IMG/VR virus record: IMGVR_UViG_2698536443_000019
Direction: 5' to 3' (one strand)
Length of the DNA stretch: 4,623 nt
From: a virus
Lineage: Duplodnaviria > Heunggongvirae > Uroviricota > Caudoviricetes
Shown here: positions 1 to 4,623 of the stretch, piece by piece
Layout: each line of letters starts with the position of its first letter
How positions within the stretch are numbered: position 1 is the first letter of the stretch
The notes under the pieces: model-generated
The model's input: only the letters and a program-made list of their open reading frames with translations
Told to the model about the DNA's origin: nothing
Databases searched by the model: none
Program-made: the position numbers and the translations under genes

Positions 1-148
1 GTACGCGATCTGTTGCCCTGGAAAGTTGATCTGAGCTCTCAGTAAATATCAATACGGTTCTGACGAGTCGCTTACGAAGCCCAAAGGCCTCAGCGATTTT
101 AAAAACACTCCAGTAATAAGCATCACCGATCCCGCTCACATTTGACAT
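1..148 (-). CDS. nohA: 5' part of a Nu1-position gene (putative terminase small subunit), partial; continues beyond window start
   Basis: Only one minus-strand frame is open from 160 to position 1. ATG at 148-146 is preceded by GGAG with 6-nt spacing; an in-frame ATG at 160-158 has no SD. Translation MSNVSGIGDAYYWSVFKIAEAFGLRKRLVRTV... has an HTH-like segment loosely resembling the lambda Nu1 N-terminus. It sits about 185-195 bp downstream of the cosN-like site, as in lambda. Symbol is a synteny inference. Confidence 0.4.
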   Translation of the reverse strand, partial: MSNVSGIGDAYYWSVFKIAEAFGLRKRLVRTVLIFTESSDQLSRATDRV

Positions 149-214
149 AAGCAACTCCATCTGGCAGGTGAAAATCATGTTTATTTATATATTTCAATTA
201 ATTGCAAACTGGTC

Positions 215-290
215 TAATGACAGGGAGAAAGAAATATTGTACAGGTGAAAAGAGAAATAACTTTTAATTATCAATAAATTACCAAACATG
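215..290 (-). other. cosB-like region: IHF consensus site plus two R-like direct repeats
   Basis: Plus-strand 269-281 TATCAATAAATTA matches the IHF consensus WATCAANNNNTTR exactly. Plus-strand 224-237 and 247-260 carry a GA(A/G)AAAGA(G)AAATA direct repeat resembling the complement of lambda R elements. The region is AT-rich and lies between cosN and the Nu1-position start. Confidence 0.4.
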
Positions 291-332
291 CTGCCGCCGC
301 CATGGAAATGCAAAAACTAGCCTTTTTCCGCG

Positions 333-344
333 ACGCTCCCGCCC
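333..344 (-). other. cosN-like cohesive-end site
   Basis: Minus strand reads GGGCGGGAGCGT-CGCGG-AAAAAGG, against lambda GGGCGGCGACCT-CGCGG-GTTTTCG as recalled. It lies 184-196 bp upstream of the candidate Nu1 start codons, versus about 190 bp in lambda. Confidence 0.5.
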
Positions 345-372
345 GTGGCAGGGGCCCCCACCGGGAGGACCC

Positions 373-395
373 GACAGCCTGACAGCCTGACAGCC
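373..395 (+). repeat. Tandem 8-bp repeat (GACAGCCT x 2.9) in a GC-rich patch
   Basis: Directly visible: gacagcct gacagcct gacagcc. An 8-bp palindrome GGGGCCCC sits at 351-358. Confidence 0.6.
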
Positions 396-531
396 GTGAT
401 GAGCATCTGATACAGCGCTTTACATAATGGCATAGGAATAATTCAGAAGGACATCACAGCATGCCCACACAAATTAGTGTGAGTGTCCTGTTTCTTCCTA
501 CGCACAGGACTGACGAGCATGAGGGGAAAAT

Positions 532-699
532 ATGCGAACCATAAATGCCTCATCTTCAGCAATGCAACCGGCATCCGAACAGGACGATATTGTAAATTCA
601 CCTAATTACGAGGACATTGCAGTAGTTGAATTGCAGCTCTGTATTAGCCTGACAGTGACAGAATGCGATATTGACTCTGTCACAGGTGAAATAGTTTGA
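532..699 (+). CDS. Hypothetical small acidic protein (55 aa)
   Basis: ATG at 532 is preceded by GAGGGG with 6-nt spacing. Translation MRTINASSSAMQPASEQDDIVNSPNYEDIAVVELQLCISLTVTECDIDSVTGEIV, stop TGA 697-699. Below the 60-aa ORF-track cutoff. No recognisable family. Confidence 0.3.
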   Translation: MRTINASSSAMQPASEQDDIVNSPNYEDIAVVELQLCISLTVTECDIDSVTGEIV

Positions 700-719
700 A
701 TGATTAGCAGTTATGGTGC

Positions 720-926
720 TCAGTCAACCACCAGGGAATAATCCTTCGAATTCTTATCGTGCTTCACCAACGCTGCCTCAATTGCCCTGAATGCTTCCAG
801 AGACACCTGATGTTCTATACATGCAATTACAACATCCGGGTAACTCATAGAAATGGTGCTATTAAGCATATTTTTTACACGAATCAGATCCAACGAGACT
901 TCATCAGCAGATTGTTCTTTATTCAT
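720..926 (-). CDS. Hypothetical small protein (68 aa), unknown function; may correspond to a small Qin cargo gene such as ynfO
   Basis: ATG at 926-924 is preceded by GGAG with 7-nt spacing. The frame is closed upstream by a stop at 951-953, so 68 aa is the maximum. No family recognised. Confidence 0.5.
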
Positions 927-1226
927 TTTGTCGCTCCATGCGTTTGCTCGTCATCTAGCGGTTAAAATATTACTTCAAATCTTACTGCATAAAAGAGGAA
1001 AAGTATGAAAGTTTGAGTACATCGACCTTACATACATCTGTCGGTTGCATATCCCTCCTGGATGCCAGCAAGGCTCAATTTTGTTACGCAATCAACACTA
1101 TTCATTAAAAACAGGCTTAATATTTGACATAAATCATCAACAAAACACAAAGAGGTCAGACCAGATTGAAACAATAAACACGATAATGCTAACTACGCGC
1201 CATCGTATCACATGGAAGGTTTACCA

Positions 1227-1637
1227 ATGGCTCAGGCTGCCATTTTTAAAGAAATATTCGATCAAGTGCGTAAAGATTTAAACTGTGAATTATTTTATTC
1301 TGAGCTAAAACGTCACAATGTCTCACTTTATATTTACTATTTAGCCACAGATAATATTCACATTGTGTTAGAAAACGACAACATAGTGTTAGTAAAAGGA
1401 CTCAAAAAGGTTGTAAATGTTAAATTCTCCAGAAACAAACATCTTATAGAGACCTCCTATAATAAGTTGAAATCAAAAGAAATCACATTTCAACAATACA
1501 GGGAAAATCTTGCTAAAGCAGGAGTTTTCCGATGGGTTACAAATATCCAGGAACACCAAAGATATTACTATGCCTTTGATAACTCATTACTATTTACTGA
1601 AAGCATCCAGAAAACTACACAGATCTTACCACGCTAA
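1227..1637 (+). CDS. ydfO: DUF1398-family prophage protein (YdfO-like), 136 aa
   Basis: ORF 1212..1637 in the track. The second in-frame ATG at 1227 has GGAAGG 7 nt upstream, while the first ATG at 1212 has no SD. Sequence [18 protein letters not shown]... recalled as YdfO of Qin. Confidence 0.75.
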
Positions 1638-1645
1638 ACCATAAC

Positions 1646-1674
1646 GTCCGGCTTCTCTCACTCCTGAGCCGGAC
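1646..1674 (+). terminator. Perfect 8-bp inverted repeat downstream of ydfO (possible weak terminator or RNA stem-loop)
   Basis: GTCCGGCT-(13 nt)-AGCCGGAC starting 9 nt after the ydfO stop. The following T-tract is weak (tgcattggttt) and the loop is long. Confidence 0.3.
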
Positions 1675-1740
1675 TGCATTGGTTTAATAAAAACCATCAA
1701 CAATTGTGATTTAGATATTCGGAACCATTCAAATATAACA

Positions 1741-1762
1741 AAACCCCGTAAAAACGAGGTTT
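1741..1762 (-). terminator. Putative intrinsic terminator downstream of gnsB
   Basis: Minus-strand hairpin CCUCG-uuuuua-CGGGG (5 bp including one G-U, extendable by A-U pairs) followed by TTTTGTT, about 25 nt after the gnsB stop. Confidence 0.4.
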
Positions 1763-1788
1763 ATGGATAAATTTTATTATTGAATACA

Positions 1789-1968
1789 TCAGATTAAATT
1801 AATCTTGACATCATAGCTTTCAAGACCCGTCATTTTTTCCCGTGCGGTAAACTGAATACTGGTAACTTCTTTCCCGGTCTTTTTCTTAAGTTCAATAATT
1901 TTTTTTGTTATATATTCAGAAATATCTGCTTCTGCTTTTGTTTTTGTTTTTAAGTTTTCAATATTCAT
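1789..1968 (-). CDS. gnsB: GnsA/GnsB-family small protein (GnsB-like)
   Basis: Track ORF 1789..1971. Tandem ATGs at 1971 and 1968; the SD AAGAGGA is 2 nt from the first and 5 nt from the second, favouring 1968. Sequence resembles GnsA (…FTAREKMTGLESYDVKI…). Confidence 0.8.
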   Translation of the reverse strand: MNIENLKTKTKAEADISEYITKKIIELKKKTGKEVTSIQFTAREKMTGLESYDVKINLI

Positions 1969-2017
1969 CATTTCCTCTTTTAGTCTGTTATGACTTTCCA
2001 GTTACACAGTAAGTCGA

Positions 2018-2046
2018 TTATATGGTGCAAACGTGTAAAAGATAAG
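2018..2046 (-). promoter_or_regulatory. Candidate sigma70 promoter for gnsB
   Basis: Perfect TATAAT on the minus strand (plus 2018-2023) about 50 nt upstream of the gnsB start. The -35 is weak (TTATCT at 17-bp spacing). Confidence 0.35.
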
Positions 2047-2139
2047 ATGAAACATCGCAATAATCAACATACGATAGTCTAAATTTTACACAAACAGACA
2101 AAGAGAATTTTCCTGAATTATCAATACAATAGCATCAAA

Positions 2140-2295
2140 TCAACTCAAGAGCCTTATTGCTGCTTCCAGAATTTCTTCTGAAGTAACATGTCGATCCGCG
2201 GCTACATAAATGACTTTATGATCTCCGGTCAGAGATGGAAACCCTGCGGCCATTACAGTAAGGTGTGTTTTTTCGCCATTTGGATATTCACGCAT
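2140..2295 (-). CDS. ynfN: Small cold-shock-associated prophage protein YnfN (51-aa form)
   Basis: In-frame ATG at 2295-2293 has GGAG 11 nt upstream and gives MREYPNGEKTHLTVMAAGFPSLTGDHKVIYVAADRHVTSEEILEAAIRLLS. Longer in-frame forms (ATG 2370, TTG 2412) lack an SD and run into the upstream terminator. Confidence 0.55.
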   Translation of the reverse strand: MREYPNGEKTHLTVMAAGFPSLTGDHKVIYVAADRHVTSEEILEAAIRLLS

Positions 2296-2412
2296 GATGG
2301 TGTTAACTCCAGTCATCGCTGGCACTACCACTGCTGGTTCAGAGTTAAAAAAAACTATGATTTTTTTCATGATGTTACCGTAGTATGTGAGTATCCATCG
2401 AATAGATACCAA

Positions 2413-2436
2413 GCAAAAAAGCTCCCGAAGGAGCCT
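2413..2436 (-). terminator. Strong rho-independent terminator (UUCG tetraloop hairpin plus T6)
   Basis: Minus strand GGCUCC-UUCG-GGAGCU followed by TTTTTTG. On the plus strand the same hairpin is followed by a T-rich run, so it may act bidirectionally. Confidence 0.7.
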
Positions 2437-2641
2437 TCATTTTCACTTTTTTAAATCCAACGACAGACGGCTGGCATTTAAGTATTGTGAAATATTATCA
2501 AATGTAATCATCATTGATTTACAAAAGATACATTTTGCCCCGAAAGGATTCATGTCAGAAACATCAAAAGATGATGTTCTATACTGGGAACCATGACAAC
2601 ACGGGCATCTAAAGTGAATATGGTTTGTAATATTGTCTACC

Positions 2642-2854
2642 TCAAAGCGCCACTACATGAACAGCGGCAGGACCTTTAGGTCCGTTCTCAATACCAAATT
2701 CAACTTCCTGATTCTCAGTTAATGTTTTGAAATCGTTGCTCTGAATTGCTGAGAAATGGACAAACACATCTTTGCTGCCATCTTTCGGCGTGATGAAACC
2801 AAAACCTTTTTCAGGGTTAAACCATTTCACTAAACCAGTCATTTTGTTAGACAT
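2642..2854 (-). CDS. cspI: Cold-shock protein CspI (CspA family), 70 aa
   Basis: [38 protein letters not shown]... carries the RNP1 (KGFGFI) and RNP2 (VFVHF) motifs. The RBS context AAAGGTAATAATT-ATG is cspA-like. Confidence 0.9.
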
Positions 2855-3033
2855 AATTATTACCTTTTGAAGAAATTAGCCCTTGGGCAGAATGGTCCGA
2901 AAAAAATATCAGAGAGAAAAACCAACAAGGAAATCTCAAGAGGTACAAATAATAAAATTATAACAATGACTGCTTCAGATAAATTTGTAACAAACCAGAA
3001 CACCATTAACGCATGATTAACCACCCATAGCAA
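2855..3033 (-). promoter_or_regulatory. cspA-type promoter with AT-rich upstream region and long (about 140 nt) 5' leader containing a cold-box-like element
   Basis: Minus strand: -35 TTGCTA (plus 3028-3033), 17-bp spacer, -10 GTTAAT (plus 3005-3010), compared with cspA TTGCAT/CTTAAT. Downstream TGGTTTGTTACAAA parallels the cspA cold box ACGGTTTGACGTACAGA. Upstream is AT-rich. Confidence 0.45.
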
Positions 3034-3215
3034 GGATTACTTTTGTAAAGAAAAACACAGCAATGAAAGAATAGCTTTATTTATTAATAAAACGTGTCAT
3101 TCTGATTAAGACCTTTTATCTTACCCTTAAGATTTCAGGAATTTTGGCTCATGGAAGAGTCCTTTTTATTTAAATTTTACATTCCGCGATGTAAATGTTC
3201 CGATTTAATATTACC

Positions 3216-4239
<1,024 letters not shown>

Positions 4240-4243
<4 letters not shown>

Positions 4244-4428
4244 ATATATTTATGATGAGGACGCTCGTGCTTATTGGCAGGATTTTCAATCTTAAAGGAG
4301 TACTGATGCTGCAGATAAGACTCAACTTTTTCTGACAATTTTTCTGCTACTTCCAGGAAGACTTGCCGGACGCTCCTTCTGGCTGCTGCCTCATAAAACT
4401 CCAGCGCAGCTCCTTCAACACGGTCCAT
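4240..4428 (-). CDS. Small hydrophilic lysis-cassette protein (62 aa from the only canonical start); possibly YdfR-like, and possibly a 5'-truncated or mis-started longer gene
   Basis: ATG at 4428, stop overlapping the endolysin ATG (ATGA). The same frame stays open a further 40 codons upstream to a TAA at 4549-4551 with no ATG/GTG/TTG. Weak RBS. Confidence 0.45.
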
Positions 4429-4560
4429 GGCGACATCCAGGTCAAAAATTTCACCGTCAAAGCGTTCCTTGTCCTGTAAGGCTACAGTTACCGTAACTTT
4501 ATTCTCAAAATTACGGACTGAACCGCCCCGGGTTTCCTGGAGAGTGTTTTATCTGTGAAC

Positions 4561-4623
4561 TCAGGCTGCCAGATCATCGTTTCCGATGGAAGCATAATAA
4601 GCTTTTTCTGCTTCTGCCGGAGG
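4561..4623 (-). CDS. 3' end of an upstream ORF (partial, entering from beyond the window end); identity unknown
   Basis: Minus frame ...PPAEAEKAYYASIGNDDLAA-TGA ends at 4561-4563. A second minus frame (...LRQKQKKLIMLPSETMIWQPEF...) is also open from the window edge to 4488, so the true frame is uncertain. Neither looks like a holin. Confidence 0.3.
   Translation of the reverse strand, partial: PPAEAEKAYYASIGNDDLAA

Follow-up and report, generated by a model that had tools for sequence, protein, structure and literature searches.

The gene ydfR encodes a 103-aa protein of the DUF1327 family and is known from the Qin prophage of E. coli K-12 (UniProt P76160) and from lambdoid phages such as Tritos and mEp460. 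The intact lysis cassette to which it belongs consists of a holin gene (essD/essQ), ydfR, the lysozyme gene rrrQ and rzpQ, and syntenic loci share the order holin (class II, PF04971), ydfR, rrrQ. Intact ydfR spans 312 nt, follows the holin gene essD at a distance of 4 nt and overlaps the start of rrrQ. The protein of strain E2865 is representative in length (103 aa, MTQDYELVVKGVRNFENKVTVTVALQDKERFDGEIFDLDVAMDRVEG...HHKYI); the N-terminus of intact YdfR reads MTQDYELVVKGVRNFENKV... (MTQDYELVVKG-VRNFENKV...), and the true start codon is preceded by the ribosome-binding site GAGGAGAG. According to a 2026 study, YdfR binds the catalytic domain (catalytic half) of RNase E via residues 1–72 and possibly binds RNA (PMC13232886). 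No lysis function is assigned to the ydfR/DUF1327 product in the literature searched.

The second described system that bears on this locus is IS629, an IS3-family insertion sequence of 1310 bp that expresses OrfA and OrfB by a programmed -1 frameshift. The element is common in Stx phages, and the copy in phage BP-4795 has the same terminal inverted repeat (TGAACCGCCCCGGG...) and the same OrfB C-terminus as the DNA analysed here.

We examined a 4,623-nt stretch of viral DNA (IMG/VR record IMGVR_UViG_2698536443_000019, Caudoviricetes), hereafter the window. Sequence and gene order place the window within a Qin-like cryptic lambdoid prophage of E. coli or Shigella. Many E. coli chromosomes carry Qin-like cryptic prophages with 99.8% identity to positions 76–4519, and the gene order (DUF1398, gnsB, ynfN, cspI, rzpQ, rrrQ, ydfR) can be followed in the RefSeq annotation of the matching prophages (gnsB, ynfN, ynfR, ymcF, cspI, rzpQ, rrrQ, ydfR, essD). 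The ydfR of the window belongs to the same sequence family as the K-12 and phage genes, and residues 12–103 of E2865 YdfR are identical to it. As in intact ydfR loci, it lies directly upstream of an rrrQ-type lysozyme gene, and its stop codon overlaps the lysozyme start. Unlike intact ydfR, the window copy has the end of an IS629 element where the ribosome-binding site, the ATG and codons 1–11 should be. The holin side of the cassette is thus replaced by the insertion sequence up to the end of the window, and the complete gene of approximately 103 codons with its own start and ribosome-binding site is absent from it. We regard this copy as most probably a 5'-truncated pseudogene of the DUF1327 family and not a functional member. 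The features of the window are collected in the table.

Table. Features of the window (positions are those of the 4,623-nt stretch).
Feature	Positions	Strand	Basis
IS629 orfB 3' end: last 20 codons and TGA 4561–4563, running off the window	4561–4623	-	C-terminus match to annotated OrfB
IS629 right terminal inverted repeat, + strand TGAACCGCCCCGGGTTTCCTGGAGA, start TGAACCGCCCCGGG	4519–4543		Alignment divergence; identity to known IS ends
Ten accidental sense codons (NTLQETRGGS) in the ydfR frame, through the IS629 end	4519–4548	-	No counterpart in intact ydfR
35-aa ORF, ATG inside IS629, crossing the junction out of the ydfR frame	4488–4595	-	ORF list
Start-less ydfR remnant, codons 12–41 (VRNFENKVTVTVALQDKERFDGEIFDLDVA)	4429–4518	-	100% ungapped identity to intact ydfR; DUF1327 from position 11
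62-aa ORF, ATG 4428 to TGA 4240–4242: ydfR codons 42–103 and TGA	4240–4428	-	ORF list; identical to E2865 YdfR from M42 on; DUF1327 profile
rrrQ-type lysozyme, 177 aa, directly downstream of ydfR	3710–4243	-	Pfam Phage_lysozyme, E=1e-23; rrrQ in syntenic loci
rzpQ (DUF2514, spanin-position gene), last lysis-cassette gene, downstream of the IS	3216–3713	-	DUF2514, E=7.7e-39; rzpQ in syntenic loci
Cold-shock protein	2642–2854		Pfam
GnsA/GnsB toxin	1789–1971		Pfam
DUF1398 protein	1212–1637		Pfam

The opposite end of the window has peculiarities of its own. Identity to prophages of the O26/E2865 type begins only at base 76, within the 5' part of a DUF1441 gene that sits in the position of the terminase small subunit; NB4833 and ETEC strains match from base 1, but with an IS66-family element inserted nearby. 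At positions 1–75, two prophage variants seem to meet in a mosaic breakpoint. A G+C-rich patch (ccgcgacgctcccgcccgtggcaggggcccccaccgggaggaccc) and, after it, GACAGCCT/GACAGCC repeated three times in tandem occur within 300–400, especially 373–395. They lie in the non-coding DNA that separates the DUF1441 gene (minus strand, its 5' end with the ATG at ~148) from small ORFs at 532–926. By its position, this repeat patch could be a candidate cos/terminase-binding region of the prophage.

The start-less open frame and its relation to ydfR

Translation of positions 4240–4623 on the minus strand, in the frame of the 62-aa ORF, gives PPAEAEKAYYASIGNDDLAA, a stop, VHR, a second stop, NTLQETRGGSVRNFENKVTVTVALQDKERFDGEIFDLDVA and then MDRVEG.... 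The initial annotation had noted that this frame remains open upstream of ATG 4428 and that this ATG is its only canonical start. Codon-by-codon inspection confirmed both observations: 40 sense codons extend up to TAA 4549–4551, and ATG, GTG and TTG are absent from them. The only near-cognate codons within the extension are ATT 4449 and CTG 4440. TGA 4561–4563 and TAA 4549–4551 were likewise found to be in frame with the 62-aa ORF. The accompanying statement that the other two minus-strand frames are closed across 4488–4548 is literally correct, as each contains a stop there, but it is weak for one of them. One frame has stops at 4499–4501, 4505–4507 and 4511–4513; the remaining frame has a stop only at the edge of this interval (4488–4490), with no further stop from 4491 to 4622, hence the 35-aa ORF listed in the table. 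This short ORF is most likely meaningless.

Taken by itself, a run of 40 open codons is within chance, by our estimate of (61/64)^40 ~0.15. The family assignment is more informative: the complete 102-aa open frame matches Pfam DUF1327 (PF07041) with 154.7 bits (E=7.6e-46, profile positions 11–93 of 93), against a gathering cut-off of 25 bits, and the 62-aa ORF alone scores 96.3 bits (E=1.3e-27, profile positions 42–93). Because DUF1327 homology reaches into the extension, most of the latter is real coding sequence of a longer gene. The segment VRNFENK...DVA corresponds to residues 12–41 of YdfR, and the apparent start of the 62-aa ORF is the internal Met42 of the intact protein. The extension is therefore made up of 30 genuine ydfR codons (V12–A41) and 10 codons from the IS629 inverted repeat, and the TAA that closes the NTLQETRGGS reading sits within IS629.

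The proposal of a longer gene that lost its start by pseudogenisation is borne out by intact homologues of 103 aa beginning MTQDYELVVKG. A merely coincidental extension would have implied that all homologues start at the equivalent of ATG 4428; the intact homologues start 41 codons earlier, and codons 12–41, which lie in the extension, are conserved.

The IS629 end and the junction at position 4519

We compared positions 4200–4623 with 5,426 complete E. coli genomes and phage records by megablast. Intact ydfR-rrrQ from dozens of genomes and from phage Tritos aligns to positions 4200–4519 in one piece, without gaps and at 100% identity, and every match to intact ydfR-rrrQ ends at window base 4519. 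From there on, positions 4519–4623 match thousands of other sites annotated as IS3-family transposase. A three-way alignment of the window, an intact allele and an IS-bearing ydfR places the departure of the window from the intact allele exactly where TGAACCGCCCCGGG... / TGAACCGCCCCGGGTTTCCTGG... begins. T4519 is common to ydfR and the IS terminus, so that the junction is ambiguous by one base. Since the junction falls exactly at the IS terminus, we interpret it as the product of transposition rather than of misassembly.

The terminal inverted repeat at 4519–4543 begins with 5'-TG and matches IS629 ends, with 98% identity to the annotated IS629 of BP-4795. The E. coli genome SW071614 has a 1310-bp element whose end matches positions 4519–4620 at 100% identity and which itself shows 97.8% identity to the BP-4795 copy annotated by the depositors as IS629 OrfA/OrfB. 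Across the 105 bases inside the window, identity to IS629 amounts to 98–100%. The 20 OrfB codons visible in the window are identical to the C-terminus of IS629 OrfB, the rve domain of which lies beyond the window. This C-terminus, ending in PPAEAEKAYYASIGNDDLAA at the window edge, is that of the annotated "transposase OrfB protein of IS629" of phage BP-4795 (AJ556162), whose OrfB end (...LGHTPPAEAEKAYYASIGNDDLAA) is identical to the window-edge reading. Because of this identity, the "upstream gene" terminated by TGA 4561–4563, to which the initial annotation had referred, is the 3' end of the IS629 transposase and no part of the lysis cassette.

A second copy of the exact junction was absent from the 5,426 complete E. 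coli genomes and, with patterns of 50 nt and 26 nt, from the GTDB species representatives and JGI metagenome contigs. Among the complete E. coli genomes only SW071614 came close (megablast), with a different insertion site located 35 nt away.

Based on the alignments, the start-less frame is almost certainly the remnant of a 103-codon ydfR cut by IS629 at codon 11/12, with removal of the start. We propose that this 1310-bp IS3-family element entered ydfR by transposition; it sits at codon 11/12, and its transposase reads in the ydfR direction. The remaining 92 codons are no longer joined to the ribosome-binding site, the ATG or codons 1–11. Their frame is still open because they are unchanged, and the ORF finder reports only 62 aa because Met42 is the only canonical start left. 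Past the junction, the open frame continues for 10 more codons, a chance reading of the IS inverted repeat, and ends at the TAA inside the IS; the next in-frame stop, TGA 4561–4563, is the one that terminates IS629 OrfB. The agreement between the OrfB and ydfR frames is a coincidence with a chance of 1 in 3. As the remnant has no substitutions relative to intact alleles, the insertion is probably recent, and the frame presumably remains open for want of time for decay since then. A simple insertion predicts that the DNA beyond the window contains ~1205 more bases of IS629 ending in ...CCCGGGGCGGTTCA and then a target repeat of 3–4 bp (GAC or ACT). Past the target repeat, it predicts ydfR codons 11 to 1 (on this strand ...TCCTTTCACAACCAGTTCATAGTCTTGAGTCAT), GAGGAGAG and the essD/essQ holin gene.

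Alternative causes of the lost start and expression of the remnant

Other ydfR copies are known to carry smaller lesions (ATG to ACG, CAG to TAG and 1-bp indels), and a point mutation in which the TAA replaces or adjoins the ancestral start, or a small indel or frameshift, might be invoked for the window as well. An indel or frameshift relative to intact homologues, or a homologue start at the position of the TAA, had indeed been considered initially. The alignment with the intact allele rules out lesions of this kind as the cause, and we hold them to be vanishingly improbable here: the sequence is identical and ungapped through 4200–4519, everything beyond 4519 is IS629 and unrelated to ydfR, and the true ydfR start would fall ~33 nt past the junction and not at the TAA. 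TAA 4549–4551 lies inside the IS629 end and matches no homologue start. The form of the IS629 event is a further question, as the window ends 105 bases into the element, so that only one IS end is in view. It is well established that prophages of IS-rich E. coli and Shigella undergo deletions and rearrangements driven by IS copies, and in another strain (L008) a deletion has removed everything upstream of ydfR codon ~31. The junction at 4519 might accordingly represent one endpoint of an IS629-mediated deletion or inversion, in which case the 5' part of ydfR and the holin gene would not be adjacent beyond the IS. Both fully readable IS insertions in ydfR are, however, simple and carry 3-bp duplications (GCT for the IS629 of SW071614 and GAA for the IS911-like element of L004), which makes this course of events unlikely, and a simple insertion of IS629 into ydfR is the reading that we follow below.

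A different possibility is that the remnant is still translated, by means of a non-canonical start (ATT 4449 or CTG 4440), through re-initiation after OrfB, through OrfB readthrough or as a functional fragment beginning at Met42. Such a reading is in keeping with the placement of OrfB, the extension and the 62-aa ORF in one frame, with transcription of the IS629 transposase in the direction of the truncated ydfR, and with the overlap of the ydfR stop and the rrrQ start (ATGA), through which translation of the remnant would help to express the lysozyme. The one-frame arrangement, however, is expected by chance at the frequency given above, and the frames differ in the SW071614 insertion. Moreover, two in-frame stops (TGA 4561–4563 and TAA 4549–4551) separate OrfB from the remnant, and the first canonical start occurs 133 nt downstream of the OrfB stop. 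A Shine-Dalgarno sequence is absent before Met42 and the near-cognate codons; upstream of ATG 4428 there is only TGGATGTCGCC, which contains no good match. The Met42-started product would also miss most of residues 1–72, the region that carries the RNase E-binding surface of YdfR (PMC13232886). Stop-codon readthrough and re-initiation were rejected on the alignment and codon evidence, the initial suggestion of non-canonical or re-initiation translation gained no support, and translation of the remnant by any of these routes appears very improbable.

A promoter and terminator scan of positions 4150–4623 returned no sigma-70-like promoter; its one terminator-like hairpin, a weak one, falls in the IS inverted repeat and is confined to the + strand. 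As the scanned region contains no sigma-70-like site, an outward promoter that would drive the remnant is unsupported. With no convincing Shine-Dalgarno sequence at Met42 and no promoter-like site in the region, the remnant is most likely untranslated, and we infer that it is a non-functional pseudogene. In a simple insertion, the holin gene and the late promoter would be separated by 1.3 kb of foreign DNA from the truncated ydfR, rrrQ and rzpQ, leaving the lysis cassette, in all probability, polar-disrupted. The polarity should extend to the lysozyme, the start of which is translationally coupled to the ydfR stop through the ATGA overlap at 4240–4243.

The lysozyme has a Gly/Ala-rich, weakly hydrophobic N-terminus and an E-x8-D-x5-T motif. 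Such features typify the signal-anchor-release (SAR) endolysins exemplified by that of phage 21, of which this lysozyme may be one. In another frame within rzpQ, a 90-aa ORF (3266–3538, minus strand) with a lipobox-like LTSC motif coincides in position with the o-spanin gene rzoQ, for which two of the comparison loci (L005 and L016) have a PF28595 (RzoQ) call at the corresponding site. The spanin pair appears to be intact despite the upstream IS.

Lesions of ydfR in other strains

Comparison loci were drawn from contigs that encode exactly the 62-aa product, in which we read the upstream sequence. These represent 11 distinct places, and all 11 carry lesions other than that of the window. The ydfR start is changed from ATG to ACG in three of them (L005, L009 and L020), and Gln26 is replaced by a nonsense codon (CAG to TAG) in L021. 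Five have 1-bp indels, some of which are perhaps sequencing or assembly errors (L003, L006, L007, L010 and L019). In L008 a deletion fuses ydfR codon ~31 to unrelated DNA, and L004 (GCA_964055005) has an IS911-like insertion at ydfR codon 29 with a GAA duplication. The genes rrrQ and rzpQ are often intact where ydfR carries such lesions (L003–L010 and L019–L021). This pattern suggests that ydfR is dispensable in cryptic Qin-like prophages.

The closest parallel to the window is the IS629 copy in SW071614 (NZ_CM129856). This element is 1310 bp long, has imperfect terminal inverted repeats in which 23 of the first 25 bases match between the ends, is flanked by the 3-bp target duplication GCT and was annotated by PGAP as an IS3 family transposase with programmed frameshift. 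Together with the IS911-like element of L004, it resembles the window in that an IS3-family element lies within the first 30 ydfR codons with its transposase in the ydfR orientation, and in that the C-terminal part of ydfR and rrrQ-rzpQ are left intact. The insertion points differ, being codon 11/12 in the window, 23/24 in SW071614 and 29 in L004. The two IS629 insertions also differ in the ATG that the element brings along, which is in the ydfR frame in SW071614 and out of frame in the window. In SW071614 (L001, 6041–6343), RefSeq/PGAP accordingly lists a 100-aa "DUF1327 domain-containing protein" (WP_447312946.1) that overlaps the IS629 transposase CDS. This protein is a hybrid, MIWQPEFTDKTLSRKPGAVQ-ALQDKE..., composed of 20 codons of the IS629 right end (MIWQPEFTDKTLSRKPGAVQ) and ydfR codons 24–103, and is an annotation artefact of an IS-disrupted gene.

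Three independent IS3-family insertions in the same orientation thus fall within about 52 bp. The first 30 codons of ydfR might be a preferred target of IS3-family elements; alternatively, the insertions might have been selected because they break the link of the lysozyme and spanin genes to the holin gene and the late promoter, or readout from the IS might keep YdfR(42–103) and the lysozyme expressed. If the selection reading were true, the uncoupling would make the cryptic Qin-like prophage harmless. We regard explanations of this sort as quite doubtful: three cases among many thousands of genomes, amid many other ydfR lesions, fit neutral decay equally well.

For annotation purposes, we recommend labelling the 62-aa ORF as a ydfR pseudogene, truncated at its 5' end and interrupted by IS629, and positions 4519–4623 as a mobile element and not as part of the lysis cassette. 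The case illustrates that the end of an IS may pass for an "upstream gene" and, by chance, extend the open frame of a remnant. Gene decay caused by insertion sequences is an ordinary and already known phenomenon in cryptic E. coli prophages; the locus described here adds one more example of the IS-mediated decay of a cryptic prophage lysis cassette and raises no new question.
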